Source: Planctomycetota bacterium (GTDB taxonomy: Bacteria; Planctomycetota; GCA-002687715; DRQF01). Taken from it: DNA of 38,019 nucleotides. Below, in pieces: positions 3 to 31,124 of the stretch. Where the stretch lies: the NCBI GenBank assembly GCA_027001995.1, contig JALTLO010000019.1:48874-86892 (forward strand). The letters run 5' to 3'. Under the pieces are notes generated by a model. The model was not told the origin of the DNA, searched no databases, and saw only the letters and a list, made by a program, of their open reading frames with translations. The position numbers and the translations under genes were made by a program. The stretch's first letter is position 1. Every line of letters begins with the position of its first letter.

Positions 3-1151
3 TTTGACAATAGCCTGTTGAATCAAGACACTGGGCCGAAAAGCATAGGATGTACTCAGCAAGTTACCCCGTGCTCCAGAACGAAACATCGTCTTGAAAA
101 CCAAGGACTCGGCCTCGTTCTCCACCGCATAACCTGCCCGCGTCTTATCACCCCGGCGACCACCCCGGCCGATCCTCTGAAGCAGAGAAGCCACGTCGGG
201 CGGTGGGCCAACCAAAAGAACGTAATCCACTGTGCCGATATCTATGCCCATCTCTAAGGTCATGGTGGCAAAACAAACCGCGGCTTGAGACGTCAAAAAC
301 TGACGTTCCGTACGCTCTCTTTGCTCTCGAGAAAGAGAACCATGATGAGTGAAGATCGCCTCACGAAAGAGACTCCGGTTGCGAACACCGTTGCTTAGAT
401 TCTCACAGTCATTTCTGGAATTGCAGAAGACCAGAAGTTTGCGAAAACCGCCCCGGGCCAATTCGTTGAGATGCTCAACCAAATCTTCCTTGCCCCGGCC
501 CATGAACTCCTTGCCATGAATGCGCCGGGCCCCAGGCACCTGCACCACTTCCGCATCATGAAGGTAACGCTTAGCCAAACCGATAGGGTCATCGACCGTG
601 GCACTGGCAGCAATGATTTGAGGCCGCACTTCGCAGACATGATCAAGGCGTTTTAGCAGGATCCGAAGCTGATCTCCCCTTGGGCTGTTATCAAGGACAT
701 GGATCTCATCGAGAACGATCAGGCGTGTGTTCTTAAGTCGCTCTGGCCGTCTGGCAATGGTGGAGTCCAGGGATTCTGGAGTGGTAATAATGATCTGGGG
801 GAAGGCCCCCCCAGTCACCTCTTTGTACTCACCTGTCCGGCGACCAAAGCTAACACCGACTTGATCCATCTTTCCTTCCAAACGCCGAAAAAGATCGTTT
901 GCTAAGGCCCGCGTTGGACTCACGATCACAACAGAAGCTGACCCGCCAACCAAGGCACGGACCATCTGGGCCGCTGGCGCAGCATACGCTTCAGTTTTTC
1001 CGCTGGCCGTGGCTGAACAAAGCAAGACATCCCGTCCTTTCATGATGACGGGAATGGCCTTCTCTTGGATTTGAGTGAGTTTGCGAAACTGCCCAAAGAA
1101 GGCACGAAAAGAAAATGGAAGAAGGTCGAGAAGTTCAGAGGCCACGGACAT
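3..1151 (-). CDS. Lhr-like DEAD/DEAH-box helicase (BrxHI/SngC-like), 3' end runs off the window
   Basis: Missing from the ORF track because it has no stop in the window. Manual translation from ATG 1151 gives MSVASELLDLLPFSFRAFFGQFRKLTQIQEKAIP (Q motif), SATASGKTEA (Walker A), LIVLDEIH (motif II), ASAT (III), ATMTLEMGIDIG (V) and LLQRIGRGGRR (VI). It starts 1 nt after the upstream TAG. Confidence 0.9.
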   Translation of the reverse strand, partial: MSVASELLDLLPFSFRAFFGQFRKLTQIQEKAIPVIMKGRDVLLCSATASGKTEAYAAPAAQMVRALVGGSASVVIVSPTRALANDLFRRLEGKMDQVGVSFGRRTGEYKEVTGGAFPQIIITTPESLDSTIARRPERLKNTRLIVLDEIHVLDNSPRGDQLRILLKRLDHVCEVRPQIIAASATVDDPIGLAKRYLHDAEVVQVPGARRIHGKEFMGRGKEDLVEHLNELARGGFRKLLVFCNSRNDCENLSNGVRNRSLFREAIFTHHGSLSREQRERTERQFLTSQAAVCFATMTLEMGIDIGTVDYVLLVGPPPDVASLLQRIGRGGRRGDKTRAGYAVENEAESLVFKTMFRSGARGNLLSTSYAFRPSVLIQQAIVK

Positions 1152-1152
1152 G

Positions 1153-2601
1153 CTAAGCCTCTATGCCCAAACGGCGTTCGTCCATGAGGTAGACACATGA
1201 CCGAACAGCAGCTCGGAAATTAGCATCGTGTGCGTCCAGCCCTTCGCCACAGATTTCAACCAGATCCTCCAAGAAAGGCGCTACTTCGAAGTCTGGATAA
1301 GACACCTCATAGATGTCACCGATGCGCCGGGCAAGCTCAACCATGTCCCGCTTTCTTAGAGGGCGCAGAGCGACATCGTATTCATCAGACTCTGTGATTT
1401 CGCCGAAATGCGCTTCGATTTCTGGCAAGGGAGTCAGGGCAAAGATGACGCAAAGAGGCTGATCTTCTTGAAACTTCAGCGACAGGGCTTTGTGAACGCC
1501 CTGACCGCCCCGATAGAGTTCATGTTCGGCAGAAAAGAGCAAGTCATCTTCTGCCATCGTCACCGCCGAGAAGTGCTTCAATACTTCTAAGGCGTACCCT
1601 TGCTGTCCTTGGCTCAAGGCATCAATGCGCTCCACTTCATCAAAAAGGAGTACGAGGCCATTGGCACCAGCACCCTTGGCGAACGCTGCCAAGGTGCCAA
1701 TCATGTGGGTGTACATCCGCCCGTAGGTGCGAAAGTCCGAGAGAGTCAACGGCATTTCACCACGCCATCTCAATCGCCGTAAGATCTTTCGCAGCTCATC
1801 GCTGCCGATCTTGTCAGCATGAACATAGTCGCGAAACCAGCCAATATCTTCCTCATTGCCATGATTCAACACAAAGAGGTAGGAAGAAAAGAAACGACTA
1901 AAACAAGCCCCGTCCGCGTTGTTGAACGCTTCATTTTCAGTGAGGTCATCGAGGATAGAACCTAGCCCACCAGATGCGGCTCCAGGCATATGGATCGATT
2001 CCGCGATTCGACGATAAAGCCGGAGAGGGTGGCTAAGGGCATTCTCGGTCGGGTCTAAGGTAATTCTCGCAGTGGCAAAGCCCGCCCGCCTAGCAAGCTG
2101 CTCGGAGACATCCAACAAATGAGTCTTACCCGTGCCGTAGTCGCCCCAAATGACGCGGCAACCCTGGGTGTCATCCAGCAAAGCGGAGATCGAATCCATC
2201 TCTGTTTCTCGTCCAACTGTGTAGGCGTCGACTCCATGCTGGGGCACAACACCTAAACGCAGCGCTTCCAAAATCTGAAAGGCATCGATTTGTTTTGACT
2301 TTTCGTCGACCACCGCCGACTTCCTCTGGGAAACACGCTTCTTGCTGGTTCTCAGCCGTCGGAGAGACTTTTGGGCCGGAGTTTCGTCTTGGGGGGTTGC
2401 CGTCAATGTGCTGCCACCATTTATTGACTCTTCGACGTTCTCAAGGACGATCTCAGTCAAATCCCCTTTCTGAACGTTAAGAGGTAAACTAGGCCTCAAG
2501 TCAAATGCCACGACGATCCCGCTGCCCGCCCTCTTCTTGAGAACACGCCCTTCACCGTGCTCCGCATGGCACACCCGGTCGCCTACTGAGAACTCTAGCA
2601 T
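1153..2601 (-). CDS. BrxD/DUF2791-like P-loop ATPase with an N-terminal Tudor/SH3-like domain
   Basis: LEALRLGVVP...VGR, Walker A GDYGTGKTH and Walker B GLVLLFDEVE are typical of the BrxD/DUF2791 family. The N-terminus FSVGDRVCHAEHGEGRV resembles the CarD/UvrD C-terminal Tudor motif. Confidence 0.8.
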   Translation of the reverse strand: MLEFSVGDRVCHAEHGEGRVLKKRAGSGIVVAFDLRPSLPLNVQKGDLTEIVLENVEESINGGSTLTATPQDETPAQKSLRRLRTSKKRVSQRKSAVVDEKSKQIDAFQILEALRLGVVPQHGVDAYTVGRETEMDSISALLDDTQGCRVIWGDYGTGKTHLLDVSEQLARRAGFATARITLDPTENALSHPLRLYRRIAESIHMPGAASGGLGSILDDLTENEAFNNADGACFSRFFSSYLFVLNHGNEEDIGWFRDYVHADKIGSDELRKILRRLRWRGEMPLTLSDFRTYGRMYTHMIGTLAAFAKGAGANGLVLLFDEVERIDALSQGQQGYALEVLKHFSAVTMAEDDLLFSAEHELYRGGQGVHKALSLKFQEDQPLCVIFALTPLPEIEAHFGEITESDEYDVALRPLRKRDMVELARRIGDIYEVSYPDFEVAPFLEDLVEICGEGLDAHDANFRAAVRSCVYLMDERRLGIEA

Positions 2602-3881
2602 TAGAAGAACTCCTGTTCGCCATCGAGGGAACTAGGCTCTGACCCACCAACAGTGTCCAGCATGTTTGAAACCTCGGTTGAGCTCAGGGCGTGTTCTTCA
2701 CCAGCGGTTTGTTCCCCAAGCATGCGGATGGTGGTCTTGACGAAGTCACGTCGGCGGCCACCTTCCAACACTTGCGAGCCCAATTCATCAGCCAAGAGTT
2801 TGACGTTCGCCTTCTGCAATTCCTTGTCGAAATTGCTGTCAAAGGCGATGTCATAAATGTCCAGCAGCTTCTCGCCGAGCACACCCATGAGCTTGACTGG
2901 CCCCATAGACAAGCGTTCGAGATCGATGAGTGGCATGAGCGGGTTGTTCTGTGACATACCAGCCACAACTTTGAGCCGCTGGGCCAAGGCCGGATAATCT
3001 GGGACAACCGTGCTCATGAATTCCGGTGGTACGGCGTAGCACCAAAGAACTCCAGGCAAAGTGGCCTGGCCACATTGGTCGATCATTTGTCGAAGATTGT
3101 CGCCGATTGCCCGCCTTCGTTTTGGTGGCAAGCTCATGTTGCGGTCCATTTCGTCAAACAGCATCACCAAGCCTGGGAGCTGCAAATGAGACAGGCTTTG
3201 AACCAAGCTCTTCAAGAATCCAAAGGCATTGGTGTCCGAAAGTTGCTCCCGGATACGGAAAGGGGTGAGCTCGGAGGCTGGCACACGTGTGCCACGCAAA
3301 TAGTCAGCAAGCAAGTCCACACAATCGTAATCATCGTCCACCACCCCAGCCATGTAGCAAGACACAGCTTTGCGGAAGTTGCGGCTTTCTACCGGAGATT
3401 CTTCGAATTCTCGTCGCAGCCAGTGTTTGAAGTCAGCAGCACCAATTTCTTTGGCTCTTTGGCGGGCGATGGTTCGCAAGACCACGTCGATGCCCGGTTC
3501 TGGCTCTAAATCCAGTGATTCTGGGGGCAGCTCCAACCCCTTAGCCACTGCCTCGTAGATCTTCTCGGGCTTATCAAAGGGGCATTCTTTCGGTGAAAGA
3601 TCAACTCGTGCAGTACAGAAACCTTCTTGCCATGCGATCTCGCGCAAGCTCATTAGGAATTGCGTCTTGCCGCCGCCGAAAGTCGCTTGGATCAATTTGA
3701 AGGAGCTGTTGCGGCCCGATTCTTTCATCTGCTTGAGATATTCAATTCGCAACATCTCCAAGAGATCATTAGTAGCCACATTCACAAAAAGTGCACCCCG
3801 CTCCGGCGGTTGACCCGTCTCTCCCATACGCTGGATGATGTGCCTTGCCAATGCTGGATCAAGATCTTCGTTGTAGAGCAT
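2601..3881 (-). CDS. Second BrxD/DUF2791-like P-loop ATPase
   Basis: Walker A ATFGGGKTQ, Walker B GLVMLFDEMD, LRQMID and YPALAQRL. It overlaps both neighbours by 1 nt (TAATG and TGATG junctions). Confidence 0.8.
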   Translation of the reverse strand: MLYNEDLDPALARHIIQRMGETGQPPERGALFVNVATNDLLEMLRIEYLKQMKESGRNSSFKLIQATFGGGKTQFLMSLREIAWQEGFCTARVDLSPKECPFDKPEKIYEAVAKGLELPPESLDLEPEPGIDVVLRTIARQRAKEIGAADFKHWLRREFEESPVESRNFRKAVSCYMAGVVDDDYDCVDLLADYLRGTRVPASELTPFRIREQLSDTNAFGFLKSLVQSLSHLQLPGLVMLFDEMDRNMSLPPKRRRAIGDNLRQMIDQCGQATLPGVLWCYAVPPEFMSTVVPDYPALAQRLKVVAGMSQNNPLMPLIDLERLSMGPVKLMGVLGEKLLDIYDIAFDSNFDKELQKANVKLLADELGSQVLEGGRRRDFVKTTIRMLGEQTAGEEHALSSTEVSNMLDTVGGSEPSSLDGEQEFF

Positions 3882-4771
3882 CAGGAGTCCTCTTTGCTGA
3901 AGAATACGGTCAACTTAAATTCGCCATTGCCCTGTTCATCTTCGAAGAAAATAACCCGGCTTTTCTTCGATGCACTTGAGCCTGTGGCCACACCCAAGTT
4001 CAACCTACGATTCTTATGAACCAAGGCTTTTTCGCGGCGCAAACGCAAGACATCCCAGGCAAATTGCGCCCGGGTATAGTCCTTAAAACTCTTCTGCCGT
4101 GGATCTTTGAGAAAAGCTGGCTTCTGCCGGTGAATCGCCAAATAGGGCAAAAAGTCGACAATCTCGACTCGGTCGCTTTTGGCGCCAGTAGCAGCTCGAC
4201 AAGCCTGCCACGCGCTATAGCAATGTTCGTGAAAAACTTGAGGATCAAAGGGTGTATTGAGGACTTTCAAAGCCTCATCATAACCCGCGAGAATCGCATC
4301 ACATTCTGCCGGGACTTGCAACAGAGTCTCCTTGGCAAATTGAAGTGACGCTTTTCCTTTGTCGCGGTCAATCACGATAGCCAAGGGAGGTGTGCGCACT
4401 TCGATAGGCCCTTCCCGGCGCAAGACTCGCATGGCCAACCCTCTGGCCTTAAAAGCGTCCCCCAAGTCTTGGCCCAAACGCTCCGTGGCTTGTTTGACGC
4501 GATCCTCCAAGTGGGCCCGGATATGATCAATAATCTGGCCCCCATTGACCGCAGAAGTAAGCCCAGTCGGCACTTTCTTAGAAGCCTTCTCTACAGCTAT
4601 CAAAGCCTTCTTGACGTCTTCGTAAACCTTAGGCTTATTCAAAGGCCCTAGGACCGTAGCCATTTTCCCCAGCTCTTTCGCTGCTGCCTTCAGGGCTCCC
4701 TGCTGTATCACAACCCATTTGTGAATGGGGACAGTCTCCCCCTCTTGAACATCATTTTCCGACTGATTCAT
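3881..4771 (-). CDS. Hypothetical protein, first gene of the ATPase-ATPase-helicase operon
   Basis: 296 aa ORF whose stop overlaps the next ATG. No family motif recognised. Confidence 0.75.
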   Translation of the reverse strand: MNQSENDVQEGETVPIHKWVVIQQGALKAAAKELGKMATVLGPLNKPKVYEDVKKALIAVEKASKKVPTGLTSAVNGGQIIDHIRAHLEDRVKQATERLGQDLGDAFKARGLAMRVLRREGPIEVRTPPLAIVIDRDKGKASLQFAKETLLQVPAECDAILAGYDEALKVLNTPFDPQVFHEHCYSAWQACRAATGAKSDRVEIVDFLPYLAIHRQKPAFLKDPRQKSFKDYTRAQFAWDVLRLRREKALVHKNRRLNLGVATGSSASKKSRVIFFEDEQGNGEFKLTVFFSKEDS

Positions 4772-5131: not shown

Positions 5132-5383
5132 TCAGGTGGCGACAGTGTGGCTAACTGTTGAAGTAGAAGAACTATCGGCAACATGGATCGTGACCGATTG
5201 CCCCGCTTCCGGTGCTTTGAAGCAGATTGTCACCGTATGTTTGGCTGGGTTATGTTTCAACTTTAGGCTAACGGCGGCCCCAGAACTCAAAGCGCGTGCG
5301 GAAAAACCAGCACCAACGCCAGAAGCCGTTATGCATACTGTAGAGCCTGGCTCCACAAAAATTGGCCCGGTGATTGAGATCAT
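5132..5383 (-). CDS. Small beta-rich two-Cys protein, cassette 1 (Ig-like fold inferred)
   Basis: 83 aa, one of five paralogues with consensus MI-x-I/L-x-G-P/S...V-E-x-G-x-x-V-C-I/L-T...NP...C-F...HTV. ATGA overlap with the upstream gene. Confidence 0.8.
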   Translation of the reverse strand: MISITGPIFVEPGSTVCITASGVGAGFSARALSSGAAVSLKLKHNPAKHTVTICFKAPEAGQSVTIHVADSSSTSTVSHTVAT

Positions 5384-5865
5384 GACGCCCTGATCGTGGC
5401 AATAAGGTCTTCGATCCGCGTGCGGAGCTTAGCATGTTTGATTGAACCCAAGGTGGATTCAATCACCCCCTGAACAGGCTTTAAGGCGACAGGGTCAATA
5501 GACTGTAGAACCCTGAGAGCTGTCAAACGCGTTTGGATAAACCGATCTTGCAAGGAGTTGCAGACCAGATCGTACAAAGCGACATGCCCTCGATCCCCAA
5601 TCCAACTCAATGCCACATTCCTCTTTTCCTCAGTTCCATTCAGCAACCTCGCAACAATCCTAGGGCGACCAGATGAAGCATAGAGAGTATCGAGAATCCC
5701 GTACTCCGCCACGAGGATTGCATCAACACTGGACAATGAGGGAGCCGTCTCAGACTCCCCAACGAAACGGTTGAGGCCGAGGGCGGTGATACCCACAATC
5801 CCAATGGCGACAGCGGTTCGACGAAAGAACTGGCGGCGCGCGATATCCACGGTTTGAACTTGCAT
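5380..5865 (-). CDS. Twin-arginine-leader HEAT-like protein, cassette 1 (leader type A)
   Basis: Start moved to MQVQTV (ATG 5865), which follows AAAGGA. ARRQFF plus a hydrophobic stretch; helical C-terminal domain with W-I...H..YDLVC..L.D and LKP. Confidence 0.8.
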   Translation of the reverse strand: MQVQTVDIARRQFFRRTAVAIGIVGITALGLNRFVGESETAPSLSSVDAILVAEYGILDTLYASSGRPRIVARLLNGTEEKRNVALSWIGDRGHVALYDLVCNSLQDRFIQTRLTALRVLQSIDPVALKPVQGVIESTLGSIKHAKLRTRIEDLIATIRAS

Positions 5866-5941
5866 AGGGATTTCCTTTCGACGGCAAACTCCAAACATAA
5901 ACATTCCAAATTACCTGACGCCGTCTTTCGCAGGGGTGGAC
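5747..5941. repeat. Type-A leader/upstream direct repeat, copy 1 (~195 bp)
   Basis: Matches 7621-7815 with about 5 substitutions counted by eye. Confidence 0.95.
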
Positions 5942-6057
5942 CATAAAATTTCGTGGAATCCGAAAAAACTCAGAGAGCCTTAGAGCCCAACGCCGACAAG
6001 GTCACGCAAGAACATATCGTGCGTTAGACTTCACTATCAAGAATAAATCTCCGGCGA

Positions 6058-6315
6058 TCAAAATCTGCTGATTACTGTATGGCTAACGCCTTTTGGCCCA
6101 CTATTATCGCCAACATGCACGATCACACCGGCACCCGCCGCAGGGGCAACAAAACAAACCGTCGCGGTACGCTTCTTGGCATTGATGATGATAGTCACCT
6201 TAACCGGAAGTCCAGACGACACCGCCGTGGCAGAAAAACCTGGGCCGACATTCGACGCGGTTATGCACACATTGGACCCTGCTTCAACGAAACTAGGGCC
6301 ATTCAACCGAATCAT
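6058..6315 (-). CDS. Small beta-rich two-Cys protein, cassette 2
   Basis: 85 aa paralogue MIRLNGPSFVEAGSNVCIT...VCF...SHTV; ATGA overlap. Confidence 0.8.
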   Translation of the reverse strand: MIRLNGPSFVEAGSNVCITASNVGPGFSATAVSSGLPVKVTIIINAKKRTATVCFVAPAAGAGVIVHVGDNSGPKGVSHTVISRF

Positions 6316-6788
6316 GACGCCTCAATCTCGACCAACAATCTGTCAACTTGCGCGCGGAACTCACGACTCTTAATTCTGTCGTTTGTTTCTCCAATCAACT
6401 GCAGATGTGGTTTCAACGCTGGATACCCGATTCTGGCTAAAACGACGAAGGCTGCCTTTTGAACTTCTTTGTGTCTTGCCCCAAGAGAAACACAGACAAG
6501 ATCATACATCGATGCATGCTTACGATCTTCAATCCATTGGAGGGTCCTAACGGCCTGTGATGGAGTCCCATTGGCAACGACAGCCTCAATCTTGGTGCGA
6601 CCAAGTGTGGCGTAAAATACATCGAGAGACCCGAAATCGGCTACGATTTCAGCCTCGATTCCGTTCGGCACAGCCGCCTTCATCTCGCCAGCAGAGTAAC
6701 GAACGCCCAAGGCAGCGATTCCAACAATTCCAGCGGCGGTCCTAGCAAAAAAGAGTCTGCGCGAGAAAAACGACCTGGGAATAGACAT
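6312..6788 (-). CDS. Twin-arginine-leader HEAT-like protein, cassette 2 (leader type B)
   Basis: SRRLFF plus a hydrophobic stretch ending MKAA; conserved WIEDRKHASMYDLVC and LKPH; AGGAG upstream. Confidence 0.8.
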   Translation of the reverse strand: MSIPRSFFSRRLFFARTAAGIVGIAALGVRYSAGEMKAAVPNGIEAEIVADFGSLDVFYATLGRTKIEAVVANGTPSQAVRTLQWIEDRKHASMYDLVCVSLGARHKEVQKAAFVVLARIGYPALKPHLQLIGETNDRIKSREFRAQVDRLLVEIEAS

Positions 6789-6887
6789 GACTGCGATAAT
6801 CTCCTGCTTTTATCTCAAACAATGTGAGCGTCTATTGTTCTTGACGTAACTTCGTGAACTTGCGGACCGGGAAATCTTTGTTCTTTG
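6671..6887. repeat. Type-B leader/upstream direct repeat, copy 1 (~217 bp)
   Basis: Matches 8565-8782 with roughly a dozen differences, including a 1-nt indel. Confidence 0.95.
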
Positions 6888-6999
6888 ACGAAAATTGTGA
6901 CAAATAGCGAATAACGTCAGCAAAATTCGGTAATTCGCTGTGAGAATTCTTGGAAAGAATGAACCCGCCAGCGAAAAATCCAAGTCACACGGGCAGACT

Positions 7000-7257
7000 C
7001 TACCGGCGTACGATCACAGTATGATTATTGGCTTCCGATTTGTTGTTGCCCGTAACATGAACGGTAACCGTGCTACCGCCCGCAGGTGCGACGAAACAAA
7101 GTACGGCTGTGTGATTTTGCGGATTGATCGTCACTTTCAACTTGACCACGGTTCCCGGTGAACTCGCAATTGCGCTAAACCCACTTCCAATGTTTGTTGC
7201 CGTAATACAAACATTGGAGCCTGCTTCCACAAAGCTTGGTCCACTTAACGGAATCAT
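7000..7257 (-). CDS. Small beta-rich two-Cys protein, cassette 3
   Basis: 85 aa paralogue MIPLSGPSFVEAGSNVCIT...LCF...NHTV; ATGA overlap. Confidence 0.8.
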   Translation of the reverse strand: MIPLSGPSFVEAGSNVCITATNIGSGFSAIASSPGTVVKLKVTINPQNHTAVLCFVAPAGGSTVTVHVTGNNKSEANNHTVIVRR

Positions 7258-7739
7258 GACGATTCTATTTCCACCAACATCCCACGAACTTCTGACAGGA
7301 GCTCCCCATCCTTAATACTGCGACTCACTGCCTCAAGCGCGGCGGCATGGGGCTTCAGAGTTACGCGGTCGAGACCATTCAGCGAAGCATATGCAACTTT
7401 CTGAATTTCTTTCCTGCCGTCACCCAAATACAAGCACAACAAGTCGTACATTGGCGCATGTCGCCGTCGGCCAATCCAAAGTAGGGTGCGAGACACTTGA
7501 GAAATCGTGCCCGTCGCCAACACCAGCTCTATCTTGGAACGACCAGCCGTCGCGTAAAAAGTGTCTAAGCGGGTGTAATCAAGGGCGATGTCTAGCTTGG
7601 CTGCATTGGTCGGGCCAGCAGTCTCAGACTCCCCAATGAAACGGTTGAGGCCGAGGGCGGTGGTACCCACAATCCCAATGGCGACGGCGGTTCGACGAAA
7701 GAACTGGCGGCGCGCGGTATCCACGGTTTGAACTTGCAT
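7254..7739 (-). CDS. Twin-arginine-leader HEAT-like protein, cassette 3 (leader type A)
   Basis: Start moved to MQVQTV (ATG 7739), which follows AAAGGA. Leader nearly identical to cassette 1; WIGRRRHAPMYDLLC and LKPH. Confidence 0.8.
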   Translation of the reverse strand: MQVQTVDTARRQFFRRTAVAIGIVGTTALGLNRFIGESETAGPTNAAKLDIALDYTRLDTFYATAGRSKIELVLATGTISQVSRTLLWIGRRRHAPMYDLLCLYLGDGRKEIQKVAYASLNGLDRVTLKPHAAALEAVSRSIKDGELLSEVRGMLVEIESS

Positions 7740-7815
7740 AGGGATTTCCTTTCGACGGCAAACTCCAAACATAAACACTCCAAATTACCTGACGCCGTCT
7801 TTCGCAGGGGTGGAC
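7621..7815. repeat. Type-A leader/upstream direct repeat, copy 2
   Basis: Matches 5747-5941 at an offset of 1874 bp. Confidence 0.95.
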
Positions 7816-7948
7816 TATGAAATCTTTAGAAATTTCTATTTTCTGCTCACATCCGACAGCCGAGCGCCCATGGATGCCAGATGGAACCCTGGGGCAAGGC
7901 TAACCAATGAAAATCTTCGGCGATCTGAGAAGCCGAGGGACTTAGCCC

Positions 7949-8203
7949 CTACAATCCAAAGACTGTATGGGTCATTCTCTCGCTGGCAGTGTTCTTCACA
8001 TGAACAGTCACAGCCCTTGCGCCCGGGGGTATAGTGAAGCAGATTTTCGCCCTGTGTTTCGCAGGATTATGGATCACCTTCAGCTTGATCCTTTGGGATC
8101 CGCTCACAGCGGCGTTTGCCGAAAAGCCCGGGCCAACTCCAGTCACCGTGAGACACACCTGGGCACCCACTTCAACGGCGGATGGGCCGCTTATTTTGAT
8201 CAT
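7949..8203 (-). CDS. Small beta-rich two-Cys protein, cassette 4
   Basis: 84 aa paralogue MIKISGPSAVEVGAQVCLT...ICF...THTV; ATGA overlap. Confidence 0.8.
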   Translation of the reverse strand: MIKISGPSAVEVGAQVCLTVTGVGPGFSANAAVSGSQRIKLKVIHNPAKHRAKICFTIPPGARAVTVHVKNTASERMTHTVFGL

Positions 8204-8682
8204 GACAATTCGACATCATTCAGCAGTCGCGTGAAGACTACTTTAAGCTCATTCCGCTTTACCCCTGGGGCAGCGGATTGAAGAATCCCTAGATGGGGCT
8301 TCAAGAGAACTGGGTCCATATTCACCAGCAAACGCAATGCAACTTCTCGCACCTTCATTCTTCCGTCTACCACCGACCTACATATCAGGTCATAGAGAGG
8401 CTTATGCCCCCGCATTTCAATCCACTCCAGGGCATAGATTTTCTTCTCAACTGTTCCGTTTTGAAGTCGTGCTTCAATCCTAGGCCGACCAAGGCTCGCA
8501 AACTGAGCATCGAGTAGCGCGAATTCAGAAGCCTCCGCTACTGCCAAGACTTGCTTGGTCGGGCCAGCCGCCTTCATCTCGCCAGCAGAGTAACGAACGC
8601 CCAAGGCGGCGATTCCAACAATTCCAGCGGCGGTCCTAGCAAAGAAGAATCTGCGCGAGAAAAACGACTTGGAAATAGACAT
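8200..8682 (-). CDS. Twin-arginine-leader HEAT-like protein, cassette 4 (leader type B)
   Basis: SRRFFF leader nearly identical to cassette 2; WIEMRGHKPLYDLIC and LKPH. Confidence 0.8.
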   Translation of the reverse strand: MSISKSFFSRRFFFARTAAGIVGIAALGVRYSAGEMKAAGPTKQVLAVAEASEFALLDAQFASLGRPRIEARLQNGTVEKKIYALEWIEMRGHKPLYDLICRSVVDGRMKVREVALRLLVNMDPVLLKPHLGILQSAAPGVKRNELKVVFTRLLNDVELS

Positions 8683-8782
8683 GGCTGCGATGATCTCCGT
8701 GCTTTTGTCTCAAACAATGTGAGCGTCTGTTGTTCTTGACGTAACTTCGTGAACTTATGGACCGGGAAATCTTTGTTCTTTG
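8565..8782. repeat. Type-B leader/upstream direct repeat, copy 2
   Basis: Matches 6671-6887 at an offset of about 1894 bp. Confidence 0.95.
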
Positions 8783-8838
8783 GGCAAAAGACAAGGAAAA
8801 AGAAGTAGCACTATCCAGACCCATAAGTCCACAAAGGA

Positions 8839-9096
8839 TCATCGGCCAAAAACGGTGTGCGTAACCTCCTCTGCCCCTGAATTATCCGAGACCACGATCG
8901 ACACGCTTTCCCCAGAAGCTGGGACGGTGAAACATACAGTAGCCGTATGAGCCGCCGGGTTGATGGCGACCTTGAGCTTGACTGCTTTCCCCTTCCGCTT
9001 GATTGCGGTTGCATTGAAACTTGCGCCAATGCCAGAAACCGTGAGACAGATCGTGGATCCAGGTTCTCCGAAATGTGAACCGCTGATCGAGATCAT
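8839..9096 (-). CDS. Small beta-rich two-Cys protein, cassette 5
   Basis: 85 aa paralogue MISISGSHFGEPGSTICLT...VCF...THTV; ATGA overlap. Confidence 0.8.
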   Translation of the reverse strand: MISISGSHFGEPGSTICLTVSGIGASFNATAIKRKGKAVKLKVAINPAAHTATVCFTVPASGESVSIVVSDNSGAEEVTHTVFGR

Positions 9097-9605
9097 GATG
9101 ATTCGACATTTCCAAGCAAGATAGCCAATTGCCGTTTGAAGTCTTGGCTCTTACATGCACCCTGAGCTTCTGAAATCAAGTTTATGTGTGGTTTCAATGC
9201 GACAGGGTCAAGGATGCTCAGGGCACTAGCAGCATAAAGCCTCACTTCCATATTCCCATCTTGAAGACAGCGACATACGAGATCGTACATGTTCGCGTGC
9301 TTGCGACGAACAATCCATTCGATGGCGGATTTCCTCCTGGCGGGGGTTCCATTGGAGATTCGTGCAGCAATACGACCTTTGCCAGAAGTTGAATAGTGAG
9401 AATCCAAGACGACAAAATCAGCCAGAATTTTGTCCTTGCCCGTCAATACGGGCACCGCAGTCTCAGACTCCCCAATGAAACGGTTGAGGCCGAGGGCGGT
9501 GATGCCTGCGATGCTGGCGGCGGCGGCTGTGCGGGTGAAGAAGCGGCGGCGACTGGCACGTTTGCGGTCAGCGATGTTCTTCTTGGCTTGGTCCGCTGCG
9601 GACAG
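9093..9605 (-). CDS. Twin-arginine-leader HEAT-like protein, cassette 5 (A-like leader; start uncertain: CTG 9605 or upstream ATG 9752/9758)
   Basis: SRRRFF...GITALGLNRFIGESETA; WIVRRKHANMYDLVC and LKPH. The in-frame CTG at 9605 follows AGAGGA-ttttcct, the same layout as AAAGGA-aatccct-ATG in cassettes 1 and 3. Confidence 0.7.
   Translation of the reverse strand: MSAADQAKKNIADRKRASRRRFFTRTAAAASIAGITALGLNRFIGESETAVPVLTGKDKILADFVVLDSHYSTSGKGRIAARISNGTPARRKSAIEWIVRRKHANMYDLVCRCLQDGNMEVRLYAASALSILDPVALKPHINLISEAQGACKSQDFKRQLAILLGNVESS
9457..9501. repeat. Partial third copy of the type-A leader repeat (45 bp)
   Basis: gcagtctcagactccccaatgaaacggttgaggccgagggcggtg is identical to 7618-7662. Confidence 0.9.
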
Positions 9606-10179
9606 AGGAAAATCCTCTGTGCCCCCGTGGACAATGGGGCCACAGAAGTAGCAATTATCAATATGGAGTTTTGTGTCCCCTGATCGATAGCCCAATTGCC
9701 ACGACTTCAGATAAATCTCACAACTAAATGGTCCTGGTGCGTTCGTTTTCATCGACATGATCTCATTGCAGAGTTCTCAAACTAACCACCTGCGGCAAAC
9801 AGGCCTGTATCAACCGCTCCATAATAGTCACCCCAAGTCGTCTGTAAAGAACTATTCCTGGACGATCTTGATCACCTTGGAAGCTCTCTGCGCCGACTCT
9901 GGCAGAAAACGCCTCACACTGAGAAAACGCGGAACAATCAGATAGATACTTGGCCATGGTCAGGCCCTGGATTAAACCCCAACGAATTCTCCTTAAACAA
10001 CAACCCCACAACAACTTAAGAATGAAGGTGGGCCCGTGGCTTCGGTGATGTCGGATTGGCCCAAAACTAGGGTTTCGGAATAATCAAAATGAAGCCGCGA
10101 TATGAGAGCTATCGAAACTCATGCAGATTTCTAAGATGCTCCCTGGGCGTCGCACACACAAATTCCACGGAGAGAGAAG

Positions 10180-12669
10180 ATGAATCGGCTCATTCTTGTT
10201 GTTGGAGTTCTTCTGTTGCTGGGGAGCGGGCTTGGATGGCTCTTCTTGGACAACCAAGACATTCAAGAAATCGGCAGCACCGGTATAGCGACGACGAGGC
10301 AAATGACAGAACCTCGAAGGGGCAAGTCCATTGTCCCAGAAATACAGGCACCACAACAAACAACAGAAGAAAAACGAGCACCCTTATCGTCAACACCCAA
10401 GAAGGAGTATGAGAACTGGTCAGATCTCAATGAGTCCAACAGCCAATTTGCTCGCATCATTGATCGCGAGACCAAAAAACCTGTTGCTGGGGCCACCCTC
10501 GCGGTTCTCGCCATCTCAAGATCAACGGACGAAAATCTCCGCAAGAAGATGCTCGAAGACATCGTCCGCTTTGCTGAGGAGAATGGCAAACTCTACCTTT
10601 CAGACGAAGCTGGCCAAGTGCGTATCCCCAAGGTCACGGCACCCACCGTCCTTACCGCAAGAAAAGACGAGAGAGTTGCGAGCAAGCAGGCCTTGGGCCG
10701 AGAAACGGATGCTCTTGTCTTAGCCATTGCACCCCGGTCTGAGATCAAAGTGAGAGTCACCACGATGGCCGGAAGACCTCTTTCAGCCATACCAACAGCA
10801 GTTTGTCTTCGGTATCGGGTCCAGGACAGGCAGAGCATTCCCCTGCTCTACGGGACTACAAACGACCGGGGAGTGGCCAAATTCAGCATCGTGCCGGGAA
10901 CCATCGAGCAGTTTCCCATGGACCAGTTCAATTTGAGGGTGGCGGCACTTGGAATTTTCAACCCACCATTAGAGCAATCCATTGAACGGGATAACCTTCC
11001 TTCAGAAGCCGTCCATCTGCGGCTTGGCCCTTTTGGCAGCATGGAAGTCAACATTCTTGACCAAGAAGGCAAGCCCTACGGGCAAAAAGTCTACGTTTCC
11101 TTCAACTTGGACACAGAAGAAAACAAACCTCTCTTCGCCAAGACCACCCAAGACGGCACCGTGAATGTTCCCATCGTGAGTTGTGGACTTGACCTCAAGA
11201 TAACAGCAATGCCTTACCCCGGGATCGACCTGAAACCTGTCAGTAGATCGGTCCAGAGTGCGACCAATCCAGGAGAGAAAAGCAGTATCACCCTGCAGTT
11301 TGGGTCCGCATGGGGCACCTTGAAAGGTCGACTGATAGATGAGGCCGGGGAGCCCATAAAGGACAGCAAGATCTTTCTCCAGGTCTTCGCCGACAAAGGC
11401 CAGGGAACACGAGGTGATTCCCACTATGTGTCCACCACTAGAACCGGCCAATTTAAGGTTCCCCTCTCCAGAGGATTCGATTCTAGGGTGTTCAAAAGAG
11501 AGATCGAAATAAGCACGGAAGCCCGCGAAAATACTCCCCCTTTAACAGTTCGCCTCCCGATGTCCTCAGAAGCACTCAAAGACGACATAGACTTAGGCAC
11601 ACTGACATTGAAAGGGCCGAGCCTATTGGCATCAGGTCACATCCGAGACCTTGCCGGCAATCCTATTGCGGGAGCTCATTTTGACATCAGAAATGGAAGG
11701 GATGAAGCGCCGGACGCCACCACCAAGAAAATCGGGCGGCTCCAATCAGACAAACGCGGGGCTTTCCAAATCTATGGCGAAACCACAGCTTCCACTTTGC
11801 ACATCAGTGCTTATGCCGCCAACCATTTCCAAGAGGGTGTCGAGGTCAAAACCGGCGCGCCCAATGTCAATATCTCCTTAAGCCGTGTCTGCAAGCTCAA
11901 AGGCCGGCTCATCATGCCAGAAGACATCGATGGCCGTTTCTTTTGGGTTCTGGCCGTCAAAGGCCAAACCCATGATGTGCAACCCGACGGACACTTCGAG
12001 CTGAGCTACTTAAAACCCGGGCCCCACAAGTTCGCTGTCCTGAGACGAGGAAAGGCTCGCCCATACGCCTTCGAAAAAGAAGTCATCTTGAAAGGCGGAG
12101 AAACCCGAGACTTAGGAGACATCCCCGTTCAAGTGTCGGGAACCAAGTTAGACATCGTGGTGAAGAGCCCCGTTTTCAAAGGACGCTACAACGGTCTTCG
12201 CATCGACCTCTTCGCACCTGGCAGCAAGAATCACTTGACATGGTTCTCCATTGACGAACAAAAGGACACCATCTTGATGCCCGCTGATGTCTGCGACATC
12301 TATGCCAGCAAAGTCGGGTTTCGAACAGAACTCTATGAGAGTGTTGCGAAAGGCGAGCTCACAATCAAACTCAAAAAAGGCATTCCTATTCGCATCCAAG
12401 TGGAGAATAAAGAAGAAATCCCCAAGGGCGGGTTCATCAACTTCGCCGCCGAAAACGCGAGCCCAATGTGGTACTACAGCCCGCGTGAAACTGCTGACGA
12501 AAAAGGCCGCATCTTCATCATGGAGCCCGGGGAACACAAGCTCAAAGCCTTCCTCAAGACCAAGATTGAGCAGAGGTTGGGCAAGGCTATTACCATCACG
12601 CCCAAGAGCATCTACGTCTTAGACAGTCACCAAGAACAGGTTTTTCAAGTGAAGATTGAGCCAAAGTAA
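10180..12669 (+). CDS. Membrane-anchored protein with repeated carboxypeptidase-regulatory-like (prealbumin-like) domains
   Basis: N-terminal hydrophobic anchor; repeated G-R-x-x-D-x-x-G-x-P-I/V-x-G-A motifs (RIIDRETKKPVAGA, GRLIDEAGEPI, GHIRDLAGNPIAGA). Confidence 0.75.
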   Translation: MNRLILVVGVLLLLGSGLGWLFLDNQDIQEIGSTGIATTRQMTEPRRGKSIVPEIQAPQQTTEEKRAPLSSTPKKEYENWSDLNESNSQFARIIDRETKKPVAGATLAVLAISRSTDENLRKKMLEDIVRFAEENGKLYLSDEAGQVRIPKVTAPTVLTARKDERVASKQALGRETDALVLAIAPRSEIKVRVTTMAGRPLSAIPTAVCLRYRVQDRQSIPLLYGTTNDRGVAKFSIVPGTIEQFPMDQFNLRVAALGIFNPPLEQSIERDNLPSEAVHLRLGPFGSMEVNILDQEGKPYGQKVYVSFNLDTEENKPLFAKTTQDGTVNVPIVSCGLDLKITAMPYPGIDLKPVSRSVQSATNPGEKSSITLQFGSAWGTLKGRLIDEAGEPIKDSKIFLQVFADKGQGTRGDSHYVSTTRTGQFKVPLSRGFDSRVFKREIEISTEARENTPPLTVRLPMSSEALKDDIDLGTLTLKGPSLLASGHIRDLAGNPIAGAHFDIRNGRDEAPDATTKKIGRLQSDKRGAFQIYGETTASTLHISAYAANHFQEGVEVKTGAPNVNISLSRVCKLKGRLIMPEDIDGRFFWVLAVKGQTHDVQPDGHFELSYLKPGPHKFAVLRRGKARPYAFEKEVILKGGETRDLGDIPVQVSGTKLDIVVKSPVFKGRYNGLRIDLFAPGSKNHLTWFSIDEQKDTILMPADVCDIYASKVGFRTELYESVAKGELTIKLKKGIPIRIQVENKEEIPKGGFINFAAENASPMWYYSPRETADEKGRIFIMEPGEHKLKAFLKTKIEQRLGKAITITPKSIYVLDSHQEQVFQVKIEPK

Positions 12670-27233: not shown

Positions 27234-27965
27234 TCAACGCGTGGCGTCAATAACTCTCACCTGGACATGACATGTACGGCACTTACTCTCCAGAGCAATA
27301 GCCGGAATTCTCTTGTGGACAATTGCTGGAGCCCCACTGATGCCATTGTCATGACACATACGACAATCATCCTTCAGCCAAGCCTTCCTGTGGGACTGGG
27401 AAGCCGGTATTGACGGAGGAAATGCAAAGCTCGCGAAGCCTCGATCTTCTGCGATCTTACTCTTCGCTTTTTCCTTGGCACCCCAATGAGGCAACTCGTT
27501 GGGGATCTCAACATGGCACGTGCGGCATTTCGCCGTCTTCAAGATTGGTGACATGCCCCGATGAACAATCTCCGGTGCTTTGCCAACGCCCGTTTCGTGG
27601 CAACGCAGACAATCGTCTTGTTGCCATGCGGACGCGTGCCAAGCGCTATCCGAGATGGTCGGCGGAAAGGCGTCGTCCTCAAATGGCGTTTCTGATTGCC
27701 TAACAGCAACAACTTTAGCCGGTGCTTCCACGGGCTTGGGCTTCATCGGGACCTTTGCCTTGACTTCCTCTTGGGATGCTGGCAAGGACTCGGCCAATTC
27801 AGTTTCTCCTTTCGTCGTTTCCTCAGGCGGGTGTGAGGCCAAAACAACTGGTGTGGCTTCTTCTCCTATGGCCTGGGGCTCGTCGCCGTTCTCATGACTT
27901 GTACAACTCAGTACAACGAGGAGCAGCGCCGAACACAACAGGCTCGAACAAATCCATCTATACAT
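27234..27965 (-). CDS. Lipoprotein tetraheme cytochrome c with two NapB-like diheme units
   Basis: Lipobox-like VLSC; four CxxCH motifs (CLRCH, CRTCH, CRMCH, CRTCH) in two repeats of FPP-x-I...H...CxxCH...AP-x-I-V-H...CRTCHV; directly downstream of napA. Confidence 0.8.
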   Translation of the reverse strand: MYRWICSSLLCSALLLVVLSCTSHENGDEPQAIGEEATPVVLASHPPEETTKGETELAESLPASQEEVKAKVPMKPKPVEAPAKVVAVRQSETPFEDDAFPPTISDSAWHASAWQQDDCLRCHETGVGKAPEIVHRGMSPILKTAKCRTCHVEIPNELPHWGAKEKAKSKIAEDRGFASFAFPPSIPASQSHRKAWLKDDCRMCHDNGISGAPAIVHKRIPAIALESKCRTCHVQVRVIDATR

Positions 27966-28025
27966 GATGTTTCTCCTTCGGATCCAGTTTGCGGGTGTTG
28001 GTCGAATTTAGCTGAACAACACGGG

Positions 28026-30347
28026 CTATGCCTTCTCCAACTTCACAGCGCACATCTTAAACTCTGGTTGTTTCGAACCAGGATCGAAGGCGTCTATGGT
28101 GACTAAGTTGATAAGACTCGGAACGTCTTCCCAGTGCATCGGGACAAAGATCATGCCGGGCTGAGGCGCTTGGGTGATCCGCACTTTGACCGTAGCCTCA
28201 CCTCTCCGCGAGGTGATCTTGATCTTCTTGCCATCTCGAATTCCCAGTTTCTTAGCGTCGTCTGGATGCACCTCAACAAAGCATGTGGGGTAAGCACGGC
28301 GCAATTCTCGAGCCTTCATGGTCATAGTGCCTGTATGCCAATGCTCCAGGACTCGACCAGTGGTGAGAACGAAAGGATAATCAGCGTCAGCAGGTTCGGC
28401 CGGACCAAGGGCGGGCCTCAGCCATACAGTCGCTCGATGGTTGGGGGCGGCGTAAAATTTCGTCTCGCCCGGCTTCAAAGTGAGGTCGGCGTATGGGCCG
28501 GCATCGAGACATGGATCTTCTCCCTTGACGAACCGTCTCGCGGTTCCAGGATGGCCCACTGTTGGGGCCGGCCACCTCACTCCCCTTTCCTTACGCAACC
28601 GCTCTCTTGTGATACCGCGGAAGTCGTATGCGGTGTCTTTCGACGCCAACATCATCTCTTCCCAAACGTCGTCTGTGGTCTTGAACTTACTGGACACATA
28701 GCCCTTAGGGACGACTCCATGGGCCTCCAAGCGACCAGCGAAATCAAGAAGGAAATCGAAGTCTGAAACGGTTCCTGCTGGGGCTGGAATCACTTGAGGG
28801 TGCAGTTGATAGCGGCGTTCGGACATGCCGAAGACACCCGTTTTTTCTGACCAGATGGCCGCTGGGAGCACCACATCGGCTAGCTCTGTTGTCCTGGTGG
28901 GGTAGCCGTCAATGACGCAAATAAACGGTTTGTTAGGCCGAGGTTTCCCCATAGCATCGCGGTAAACCGAGACATTGGGAAGACTATGCCCCGGGTTGGT
29001 GGTCAAGATGAGCATGGCTTGCACCTCATCTCTTGCCAAGGCCTGGAACATGGCGATGGTATGCAGACCTGGTTTGGGCTTGATGGTGCCGGGTTTACAA
29101 CCCCAGATCTTCTCCATCTCTTCTCTGTGCTTGGCTTTCTTGATGGCGCGGCCATAAGGAAGAATGTGGCACAAAGAACCGGTGTCGCGGACGCCACCAC
29201 AGGCATTGGGTTGCCCTGTAAGGGAAAATGGTGTTGCCCCAGGTTTGCCGATTTGCCCGGAGATGAGATGCAGATTGTGCATCAGGTTATTGACCCAGAC
29301 ACCTCGGGTTCTTTGGTTGAGCCCCATAGTCCAGAATGAAGTTGTTGGCCCCACAGCGAAGATTTTCGCTGCTTCCTCGATCTTGGCTTGAGAGACACCG
29401 GTCTGAAGCTCAGCCTGCCGCGGAGTGTAGTTCTTGCTGAGCCACTCAAAGTACTCATCAAACGTCACATTGGTGGGCTTTTTGTCTTTGACGATCTTGA
29501 ATTGGACGTTCTTTTCGATGAAAGCCTTGTCATGCTTCTTGTCTCGGATCATGCAGTAGGCCATAGCGTGAAGAACGGCTAAGTCATAGCCCGGCACTGG
29601 GTCGAGATGGACGTCAGCGATGGTGTCGATGGGGCTCTTTCTCGGGTCAAGGGTAATGATCAACACATCACGATTTTGTTGTTTGCGGGCCAAGATTTGG
29701 TCGTAAATGACGGGATGGCATTCAGCCGTGTTAGAACCGACCAAGAAGAACACTTTGGCGTGTTCAATGTCGTCGTAACTTCCCATGGGTTCATCTTTGC
29801 CGAAGGTAGAAACATACCCTCCGACGGCGCTGGCCATGCACAGGCGTGGATTACCTTCAACATTGTTGGTGCCGATGCCACCTTTGAACAAACGATTGGC
29901 GAGATAGCTTTCTTCGCTCATGGCTTGGCCCGAGCCATAGTAGGCCACAGAGTCTGGACCGTGCTTCTTGATGGCACTGGCAAACTTCTCGGCCACCAAG
30001 GTCATGGCCTCGTCCCAGGTAGCTGGTACGAGTGTGCCGTTCTTGCGAATCATGGGGGTCTTAAGACGGTCCTTGGCATGGACGATTTTAGGCAAGAACA
30101 AGGATTTGGCGCAGACCAATCCTTTCGTGGTGGGATGCTCCACATCTCCTCGAAGGGCCACCAAACGATCGTCCCGCACCCCAAGCATGACCCCACATCC
30201 GGTGCCGCAGAATCGGCAAACAGATTTGTGCCATTTGAGGGGGCTTGGAGCTTCGAACACCTTGCCCATCGCTTTCTGACTACTCGTGGCTGTAACAACG
30301 GCTGCCATCGCTGCCGCCTTCATGAAATCTCTTCTTGTATTTTCCAT
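28026..30347 (-). CDS. napA: Periplasmic nitrate reductase catalytic subunit
   Basis: AAGGAG before MENTRRDFMK (Tat motif); CRFCGTGC [4Fe-4S] motif; NPRLCMASA Mo ligand; SLTGQPNACG; LTTGRVLEHWHTGTMT; SKQPEFKMCAV. Confidence 0.95.
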   Translation of the reverse strand: MENTRRDFMKAAAMAAVVTATSSQKAMGKVFEAPSPLKWHKSVCRFCGTGCGVMLGVRDDRLVALRGDVEHPTTKGLVCAKSLFLPKIVHAKDRLKTPMIRKNGTLVPATWDEAMTLVAEKFASAIKKHGPDSVAYYGSGQAMSEESYLANRLFKGGIGTNNVEGNPRLCMASAVGGYVSTFGKDEPMGSYDDIEHAKVFFLVGSNTAECHPVIYDQILARKQQNRDVLIITLDPRKSPIDTIADVHLDPVPGYDLAVLHAMAYCMIRDKKHDKAFIEKNVQFKIVKDKKPTNVTFDEYFEWLSKNYTPRQAELQTGVSQAKIEEAAKIFAVGPTTSFWTMGLNQRTRGVWVNNLMHNLHLISGQIGKPGATPFSLTGQPNACGGVRDTGSLCHILPYGRAIKKAKHREEMEKIWGCKPGTIKPKPGLHTIAMFQALARDEVQAMLILTTNPGHSLPNVSVYRDAMGKPRPNKPFICVIDGYPTRTTELADVVLPAAIWSEKTGVFGMSERRYQLHPQVIPAPAGTVSDFDFLLDFAGRLEAHGVVPKGYVSSKFKTTDDVWEEMMLASKDTAYDFRGITRERLRKERGVRWPAPTVGHPGTARRFVKGEDPCLDAGPYADLTLKPGETKFYAAPNHRATVWLRPALGPAEPADADYPFVLTTGRVLEHWHTGTMTMKARELRRAYPTCFVEVHPDDAKKLGIRDGKKIKITSRRGEATVKVRITQAPQPGMIFVPMHWEDVPSLINLVTIDAFDPGSKQPEFKMCAVKLEKA

Positions 30348-30396
30348 GACCTGCTCCTTTTCCTTGAGCATGACCTCAAGGCGTTGCCGGTTGCCC

Positions 30397-30675
30397 TCAG
30401 GCTTCGGCGATTCTGTCTGGATCTTCTTCGAGTTCGACGGACACCGGCCAAGCTCCCCAAACACCAGGAGTAGCCTTGATGGGCCCTTCGAGAATCTCTT
30501 CGGCCCCGGCGGCGTCTTTGGTTTCGATCAGGATTCCGACGCGGTCTTGGTCGTCTAGATCGAAGGTTTCAACTCCGGGAATCTGGTTTAGTCGTTGTCT
30601 GACTTTCACGGACGCCCCAGGTTCGATGCGGGCGAAAGCGCCTACCACAGCAAGGGTTTCAATGTCTTGTCTCAT
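30397..30675 (-). CDS. napD: NapD chaperone
   Basis: ~92 aa ferredoxin-like protein (LNQIPGVE...RVGILIET) immediately upstream of napA; ATGA overlap with the preceding gene. Confidence 0.75.
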   Translation of the reverse strand: MRQDIETLAVVGAFARIEPGASVKVRQRLNQIPGVETFDLDDQDRVGILIETKDAAGAEEILEGPIKATPGVWGAWPVSVELEEDPDRIAEA

Positions 30676-31124
30676 CCCATTCCCCCACAACTGGCCAGGC
30701 TGTCTGCTGCGCGGCAGAGGCTTGCGTAGTATTCATCAACAGAAAGTCCGAGGAGGGCGGAGCCGTAAAGCTCTGCCTCCTCGGACGTGACGATTTCGCC
30801 ATAGTTAATACGTGCCACGTGATAGGCAACGATCGCAGGGAGAACGGGGTCTGAGCGAAACTTCGGGTGGACAAAAAGCTGATAACCATCTTTTGGCCCC
30901 GTGTCCTTCGGTTGTGCCCAGGCGAACTCACCGTCTTGCAAGTTGGAAGCGTCGAAGATGAGGTCCGTAGCGAATCGAACACACTCCGCATCTTGCAAGT
31001 AAGCCATCAAGGATGCCTCACCATTCAGATCTGGATGACGTTTCTTTGTCGCCATGGCTTTCTCGACCACATGATCGCGCAGGGCAATCTTTCCGTCTTG
31101 TTCTGTCGGCTCGTGTCGCTTCAT
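30672..31124 (-). CDS. Hypothetical cytoplasmic protein in the hao-nap operon
   Basis: 150 aa with no signal peptide or CxxCH; coupled to napD by ATGA overlap. Confidence 0.75.
   Translation of the reverse strand: MKRHEPTEQDGKIALRDHVVEKAMATKKRHPDLNGEASLMAYLQDAECVRFATDLIFDASNLQDGEFAWAQPKDTGPKDGYQLFVHPKFRSDPVLPAIVAYHVARINYGEIVTSEEAELYGSALLGLSVDEYYASLCRAADSLASCGGMG

Follow-up and report, generated by a model that had tools for sequence, protein, structure and literature searches.

We analysed a window of 38,019 nucleotides (nt), the whole stretch of DNA under study, from the genome of a Planctomycetota bacterium (contig JALTLO010000019.1) whose minus strand carries a tandem array of two-gene cassettes, each encoding a large and a small protein. 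The list of open reading frames (ORFs) contains five large/small pairs back to back between positions 5132 and 9758, with a 4-nt overlap between the large and the small ORF in 5/5 window pairs. A sequence-only reading of the same DNA had noticed five same-order pairs here, and the ORF list, alignments and profile searches show them to be real. The other large proteins are 40–44% identical to large protein 1, and RR-x-FF, L118 D119, W148 I149 R152 H154 Y158 D159 L160 C162 and L188 K189 P190 are invariant among them; the LD, W-I..R.H...YDL.C and LKP residues claimed for the large partner are therefore present in all five copies. The other small proteins (83–85 aa) are 48–54% identical to small protein 1 and share C17, C55, G6, F27, F56 and H80 T81 V82 throughout the array, in agreement with the length, the two invariant cysteines, the HTV motif and the absence of a signal peptide described before. 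Family profiles retrieved exactly the window copies and two more adjacent pairs of the same genome, on contigs C99 and C105, with E values from 1e-18 to 1e-84; because only these copies were recovered at such values, the array lies far beyond chance.

Large protein 1 (9093–9758) has the full-length form. Its 221-aa ORF, which probably starts at 9752 to give 219 aa (the length of the database gene call P0150), combines an N-terminal Cys/His domain, a twin-arginine hydrophobic segment and a C-terminal domain that resembles HEAT/ARM repeats, and it overlaps the gene for small protein 1 (8839–9096; 85 aa), a leaderless immunoglobulin (Ig) domain of predicted filamin/TIG-like fold. Large proteins 2 (8200–8682; 160 aa) and 4 (6312–6788; 158 aa) begin with a head that we call type A, which in large protein 2 is short, places the twin arginine (RR) after 8 residues and is without the zinc-finger domain. 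Large proteins 3 (7254–7778) and 5 (5380–5904) have type-B heads, short in large protein 3, and are 174-aa ORFs whose true start is probably an ATG 13 codons further in (7739 and 5865, respectively, each giving 161 aa), because database gene calls of near-identical proteins begin there. The corresponding small proteins are encoded at 7949–8203 (small protein 2; 84 aa), 7000–7257 (small protein 3; 85 aa), 6058–6315 (small protein 4; 85 aa) and 5132–5383 (small protein 5; 83 aa). All of these genes lie on the minus strand.

A domain of about 65 aa precedes the twin arginine in large protein 1, in the C99 and C105 copies and in most relatives, which come from four other genera. In large protein 1 its C-x18-H-x3-C-x2-C region, which looks anti-sigma (ZAS)-like, covers residues 3–48 (9615–9752, minus strand). 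C13, H32, C36 and C39 are invariant in 9/9 full-length members, all of which carry an H-x3-C-x2-C of the ZAS type with an upstream cysteine ligand, and we take this spacing to resemble the zinc-binding motif of ZAS anti-sigma factors. The sequence-only reading overlooked this zinc-finger-like domain of the ancestral form, and with it the anti-sigma-factor origin; it also overlooked the mosaic of conserved heads and variable bodies described below. A six-frame search of the genome with the Pfam zf-HC2 model (PF13490) found 10 other places, none of them large-protein genes, which counts against a link to anti-sigma factors. The PDB sequence search with the domain profile gave only chance-level matches to ribosomal zinc ribbons (E ≥ 0.22), and residues 1–100 of large protein 1 gave protein-atlas scores of 0.83–0.85, to be read as leads only, with one cluster in which 18% of members carry zf-HC2.

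The large-family profile matched one protein outside the family, the product of a 539-aa ORF in G297, a genome of the planctomycete genus g173. This ORF overlaps an upstream extracytoplasmic function (ECF) sigma gene (Sigma70_r2/r4) by 4 nt, and its product has the same Cys/His spacing and a hydrophobic segment followed by HEAT_2/HEAT_PBS repeats; profile–profile comparison (hhalign) aligned it with the family at a probability of 89.7% (E = 1.9e-6 over 79 columns). A sigma gene followed by a head-bearing gene is clear in 3/4 genomes of g173 (G297, G240 and G311), the ORF list of G210 being ambiguous for the second gene. Because this type of sigma-linked HEAT protein shares the head spacing, the hydrophobic segment and the hhalign match with our family, sequence comparison gives good support to an origin of the large protein from an anti-sigma-type ancestor whose outer domain was made of HEAT repeats. 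The two kinds of protein have nevertheless diverged. Those of g173 have 536–551 aa or more and many HEAT_2/HEAT_PBS repeats, their genes overlap the ECF sigma gene, no gene for a small Ig partner adjoins or follows them, and the twin arginine is not kept in 2/3 readable cases, whereas the array has no sigma gene, a short body (~120 aa) and a coupled Ig partner. A sigma partner acting in trans was also considered: the genome has at least 13 ECF-like genes, of which the best match to the g173 sigma factor is 35% identical and lies at a contig end, and none could be named as the partner.

Neither protein of the pair could be placed in a curated family. The best Pfam match of large protein 1 was HEAT_2 (PF13646) at 20.2 bits, below the 27.7-bit cut-off; for the five small proteins Pfam returned nothing at the cut-off and nothing meaningful below it, and neither NCBIfam nor PADLOC gave a match for either protein. 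This accords with the earlier remark that neither family could be recognized. The literature searched, supplementary files aside, contains no description of such pairs, and the pair family is undescribed and diversifies rapidly. Large protein 1 was modelled as three short helices, one low-confidence long helix that includes the hydrophobic stretch, and seven helices with a predicted local distance difference test (pLDDT) score above 90. The best VIA structural match of the C-domain (Z 12.1; root mean square deviation (rmsd) 4.5 Å over 115 residues) is within the generic range for helical repeats, and Foldseek found nothing at E ≤ 0.001 with the large model. The models thus support a HEAT/ARM-like C-domain with a generic solenoid likeness only. 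A metal or cofactor site in this body was considered and dropped, because C162 and H154 are not kept in distant members.

By its AlphaFold model (pLDDT 82.5), the small protein is a filamin/TIG-like Ig domain. It was predicted as a seven-strand sandwich. The unfiltered structural comparison ranked Ig domains of filamin highest (Z 9.6; rmsd 1.9–2.0 Å over 82/85 residues), and Foldseek returned Ig V and filamin domains; a HEAT-like large partner and a beta-sandwich small one had both been anticipated from the sequence, and models and structural matches bear this out. When the small-protein profile was searched against 1.84 billion representatives, 121 proteins matched at E ≤ 1e-3: 45 stand-alone proteins (≤100 aa), 4 of 113–129 aa and 72 long proteins with several matched stretches. 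Pfam called IPT/TIG (PF01833) in 8/11 of the long matches scanned; the profile also matches tandem TIG repeats of giant proteins. The small proteins begin directly with strand A and have no hydrophobic N terminus. Stand-alone homologues of 113–144 aa, by contrast, carry their own N-terminal signal peptides (for example, P0029, P0053, P0093, P0130 and the copies of genus g6), so the domain works outside the cytoplasm in these relatives. In genus g6, the secreted relatives (116–144 aa) are encoded just downstream of genes for a ClpB-like ATPase and a DksA/TraR zinc-finger protein in 3/3 genomes (L021, L022 and L023), where the large partner is absent.

The large and small genes are adjacent, with a 4-nt overlap or abutting, in 7/7 copies of the genome and in the relatives' loci examined, so the pairing is conserved in relatives. 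We predicted the complex of large protein 1 (residues 100–221) and small protein 1, a single cognate pair, with custom alignments in three runs and with 3 controls. The interface score (ipSAE) was 0.85–0.86 in the three runs, compared with 0.00 for the best control, a mark that 116/157 solved complexes and 2/215 mismatched pairs reach; the small partner had a pLDDT of 91, and at least 98% of the contacts agreed between runs. A complex of the two proteins, which had been proposed on sequence grounds, is therefore well supported by modelling, with the small protein bound to the C-domain of the large one. In both partners, the residues predicted to be in contact vary more than the others (2.29 versus 1.52 bits in the large protein, p = 2e-5; 1.80 versus 1.22 bits in the small protein, p = 0.005), and the distances of bodies and partners correlate (Mantel r 0.75–0.83, p ≤ 4e-4).

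The twin arginine of large protein 1 (R70 R71) and its 16-residue uncharged h-region (9483–9551, minus strand) form a candidate signal-anchor for twin-arginine translocation (Tat); they overlap a DNA repeat, D2, that is 80% identical to the type-B heads. RR stands directly before the hydrophobic stretch in 24/24 family members from five genera, never as KR or RK, whereas RR stands at this place in 2/9 of the ordinary zf-HC2 proteins that the genome encodes. The Tat consensus is S/T-R-R-x-F-L-K, and the family contains SRRRFLK in G005 and NRRRFLK in G008. In g1, the genus of the window, the short h-region consists of 13–22 uncharged residues in 9/10 members, against 37 in the C105 copy, and is mildly hydrophobic, peaking at 1.5–2.3; the Tat-signal molybdoenzyme of the window peaks at 1.3. 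That enzyme, a molybdopterin oxidoreductase, belongs to a respiratory cluster at 27234–35488 (minus strand) that also encodes an NrfD-like membrane subunit, a 4Fe-4S protein and several multihaem cytochromes. The organism, therefore, uses Tat for a classical substrate, and TatC is encoded in the genome (226 bits). The earlier description of the large partner as having a Tat leader holds for the RR-x-FF motif, which is present in all five copies, but not for a simple leader in large protein 1, where RR (residues 70–71) stands behind the Cys/His domain. The arginines before the segment suggest that the C-domain would lie outside the membrane, and we infer Tat export of the large protein. Should the C-domain indeed lie there, any leaderless partner bound to it would have to be carried across along with it, which is the logic of a hitchhiker.

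Several known systems offer precedents. In Tat hitchhiker pairs such as the small and large hydrogenase subunits and PaoABC, one subunit has an RR signal, the partner has none and both are exported as a folded complex, as three articles describe (PMC4273604, PMC10924467 and PMC12036975). Unlike the array, these are mostly cofactor enzymes; the array shows no cofactor motif, a multiplied hypervariable pair and a signal behind a zinc-finger domain. A closer parallel for the anchor is FecR of E. coli, which, according to PMC12036975, is inserted by Tat through R79/R80, its separate C-terminal fragment being co-translocated and then binding in the periplasm. Like large protein 1, FecR has a cytoplasmic N-domain and a twin arginine at about residue 70–80 before one membrane segment. 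It differs in that its partner is its own autoproteolytic fragment rather than the product of a separate gene, and in its linkage to a sigma factor and a TonB receptor, which is not seen here; the pair proteins have no Pfam match to FecR/DUF4880 domains at E ≤ 1. A further comparison is the anti-sigma factor RseA, which has one membrane segment and whose next gene encodes RseB, a periplasmic protein that binds the outer domain of RseA and gates its cleavage. The array shares with RseA/RseB an anti-sigma-type protein with one putative membrane segment and a predicted binding partner encoded by the next gene, but RseB is exported through a Sec signal of its own, the two systems use unrelated folds and a sigma gene is in the RseA/RseB operon. 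The hitchhiker option put forward earlier fits the invariant twin arginine, the presence of TatC, the small homologues that bear signal peptides and the FecR precedent; export is the part of it that we infer.

We give roughly an even chance to a reading in which the array consists of sensor modules of anti-sigma descent that Tat inserts together with an exported Ig-like partner and that have multiplied into copies with like heads and diversifying bodies. Each cassette would be a two-subunit extracytoplasmic module. The ancestral large protein would consist of the cytoplasmic Cys/His domain of ~65 aa, the twin-arginine hydrophobic segment and a helical-repeat domain of ~120 aa, and the leaderless Ig-like small protein would be made by coupled translation and, while still in the cytoplasm, would join the helical-repeat domain in a 1:1 complex. 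This folded heterodimer would then cross the membrane by Tat through the twin-arginine segment of the large protein, after which the head may stay as an anchor or be cut off. Full-length copies might relay a signal through the membrane in the manner of FecR or RseA/RseB, the receiver being a sigma factor or another partner whose gene lies elsewhere; in copies 2–5, the signalling domain would have been lost and only a short Tat-type leader kept. Gene conversion would keep the heads alike while bodies and partners diversify together, mostly at the contact surface.

If this reading is true, the array would provide a Tat hitchhiker pair without a cofactor enzyme and so extend the known cargo of the Tat pathway. 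Beside FecR, it would give a second, independent case of a protein of the sigma-regulator type that is inserted by way of an internal twin-arginine anchor and brings along a partner without a signal. Arrays of conserved heads and variable bodies suggest, moreover, a route by which the outward part of a sensor could be diversified while targeting and signalling stay constant.

A number of results weigh against this reading. The Pfam zf-HC2 model matches 0/9 N-domains even at E ≤ 10, and when the N-domain was compared, profile to profile, with seven aligned zf-HC2 proteins from this genome, the probability was just 38%. No sigma factor was found among the 80 neighbour proteins scanned around family loci (0/80), and the signalling (Cys/His) domain is absent from 4/5 window copies. 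The complex score expresses the confidence of a model rather than a measurement of binding. Some distant small proteins lack the first cysteine, which rules out a disulfide common to the whole family. With regard to targeting, 5/7 hydrophobic segments in genomes G007 and G003 peak at 3.0–3.4, like an ordinary anchor of the Sec/signal recognition particle type, and the Pfam TAT_signal model (PF10518) scored only 15.3–15.4 bits for G005 and G008 against a cut-off of 22.7 bits, with no match for 3 window segments; a truncated positive control scored 20 bits.

These last results would be expected if Sec/YidC inserted the large protein as an ordinary membrane protein with a single pass, its C-domain outside and the small protein in the cytoplasm, or if the stretch did not span the membrane and both proteins were cytoplasmic, in either case with no Tat and no hitchhiking. 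The strongly hydrophobic anchors of G007 and G003 and the Tat hidden Markov model scores under the cut-off speak for such a protein, as does the positive-inside rule, under which arginines commonly precede membrane helices. However, with the C-domain outside and the small protein inside, the predicted tight, co-evolving interface could never form. The choice of RR over KR or RK in every family member and the secretion of small-protein relatives are further points against it, and we consider this alternative distinctly unlikely. The small partners in G007 and G003 are likewise without signal peptides, despite the firm-looking anchors of most of their large proteins.

We also considered that the large protein is a mere export carrier or chaperone that releases the Ig-like subunit outside for use in a filament, an adhesin or a surface layer. 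The partner is indeed leaderless and Ig-like, with a cysteine pair conserved in the genus, and the small-protein profile matches repeats of giant TIG-domain proteins, which presumably are surface proteins. Yet no usher, pilin, sortase or secretion genes were linked among the scanned neighbours, and an N-domain homologous to an anti-sigma head would not be needed by a chaperone. We regard the carrier role as very unlikely; nothing in the analysis points to the filament or adhesin subunit suggested by the sequence-only reading.

The tandem copies are mosaics of conserved heads and variable bodies. The type-A head block (~230 nt, of which ~106 nt are upstream and ~124 nt are leader codons in pair 2) lies at 8559–8789 in pair 2 and at 6665–6894 in pair 4, with 92–94% DNA identity, and the type-B block (207 nt) lies at 7617–7823 in pair 3 and at 5743–5949 in pair 5, with 96% identity (all minus strand). 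Outside the blocks, DNA identity drops sharply to ~50% on either side; at the protein level, heads are 92–94% identical and bodies 34–47%. The pattern recurs in another genus, where genome G005 carries a tandem of two pairs whose 95-aa heads are identical and whose bodies differ; G007 contains three pairs in tandem. Assemblies also disagree in how heads and bodies are combined. On a 60,730-nt NCBI contig, P0136 joins an L1-type head (95%) to an L3-type body (84%) and P0143 has an L1-type body (87%) behind a short head, and in two ENA contigs of ~1 kb a type-B head precedes a body nearly identical to that of L1 or L4. In the sequencing run that covers the array best, the ends of contigs coincide with the heads, two of which are connected by a 45-nt exact repeat. 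Assembly choices could therefore account for the short-contig recombinants and even for the way heads and bodies are joined in the window, which the contigs of the sequencing runs neither confirm nor contradict. Run X3 includes a 257-nt contig (depth 3.3, 8 mismatches) in which the head of large 1 (9496) is joined directly to the DNA downstream of small 5 (5009), so that 4486 nt are skipped; its source may be a related strain that has lost the entire cassette array.

Such mosaics recall CDI (contact-dependent inhibition)/Rhs loci, in which a full-length first gene is followed by 5′-truncated variable cassettes, each with a small cognate gene, and the array likewise has a main gene and truncated cassettes with a common stretch of homology and a cognate small gene each. 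The pairs could accordingly be a polymorphic conflict module, effector/immunity-like or a defence sensor, in which the 5′-truncated orphan cassettes and their cognate small partners are swapped behind a shared head by recombination. The contrast between conserved heads (94–100% DNA identity over ~210–230 nt) and variable bodies (~50%), the identical heads in the tandem pairs of G005, the combinations in P0136 and P0143, the variability of the predicted contact residues in both partners and the defence-like genes beside many of the loci (see below) can all be read in this way. Three of these points carry caveats: contact-residue variability was compared without a control for solvent exposure, the association with defence islands is without a background control, and the recombinants on short contigs may be assembly chimeras. 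Unlike CDI/Rhs loci, which have toxin and delivery domains, neither the pair proteins nor the scanned neighbours had a toxin, nuclease or delivery domain (Pfam, NCBIfam and PADLOC), so the effector option raised earlier found no support in the pair proteins, and the large protein has just ~160–220 aa. Copies 2–5 all keep start codons, a Shine–Dalgarno-like GGAG and intact RR leaders, which argues that the truncated copies are not silent fragments; the cassettes look independently expressible. A conflict module is, in our judgement, rather unlikely.

The mosaic could also reflect a recombinational specificity switch for a transmembrane sensor, comparable to pilE/pilS and to CDI orphan modules: one zinc-finger signalling head, with downstream body and cognate Ig cassettes movable behind it through the near-identical leader-coding block. 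We see this as something of a long shot. If true, the planctomycete could re-aim an anti-sigma-type sensor, possibly against phages or competitors, targets that come to mind because the pairs often lie beside defence genes.

The large family was present in the genome of the window (G000) and in 8/8 other genomes of its GTDB family (9/9 in total), in 0/14 other genomes of the order and, in a phylum sample of 401 Planctomycetota genomes, as one marginal match among the 392 outside the family. Searches of genome contigs with a single protein and of metagenome contigs with a closer alignment found no relative. Among the genomes searched, the large family is thus confined to one uncultured planctomycete family. 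Decayed or rearranged members (L040:7374-7916, L041:6752-7123, G002:C49:17533-17793 and G003:C79) include a head fused to the last body helices, bodies with in-frame stops and a head-only fragment, which points to fast birth and death of copies, and the confinement of the family would make it a clean case for following the birth and decay of such modules.

Defence-like neighbours were found in 8/15 loci examined (~6 independent loci), a raw count without a background comparison. They comprise a Shango/BrxD–BrxHI-like cluster in the window and in G002, and elsewhere mad3/8-like, DpdE/ZorD-like, PD-Lambda-2_B/RmrA-like and AbiE genes. In the window, this cluster occupies 3–4771 on the minus strand, directly downstream of the array, and consists of four genes, for a 296-aa protein without a family, two BrxD/SngB-like ATPases and an SngC/BrxHI-like DEAD helicase whose gene runs past the edge of the window. 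In appearance, the cluster is a defence module akin to Shango or to BREX accessory genes. It also adjoins a pair in G002 (L024), where the pair is inverted relative to the cluster and the 296-aa proteins are 56% identical.

On the other side of the array, divergent from pair 1, a gene at 10180–12669 (plus strand) encodes an 829-aa membrane-anchored protein with CarboxypepD_reg/Ig-like repeats. A paralogue lies beside the C99 pair (L013:62-1072, minus strand; 23% identity, E = 4e-13), and the two families, that of the 829-aa protein and that of the pairs, may be loosely linked. A scan for promoters and terminators was uninformative, with 8 promoter-like sites where 4.5 were expected, among them one 10-of-12 site upstream of pair 1. 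Finally, a short AAAGATTTC...GGTCC-like motif is common to all four spacers between the pairs (5905–6057, 6789–6999, 7779–7948 and 8683–8838), ~60–100 nt upstream of the large-gene starts, and may be a common promoter or operator element.

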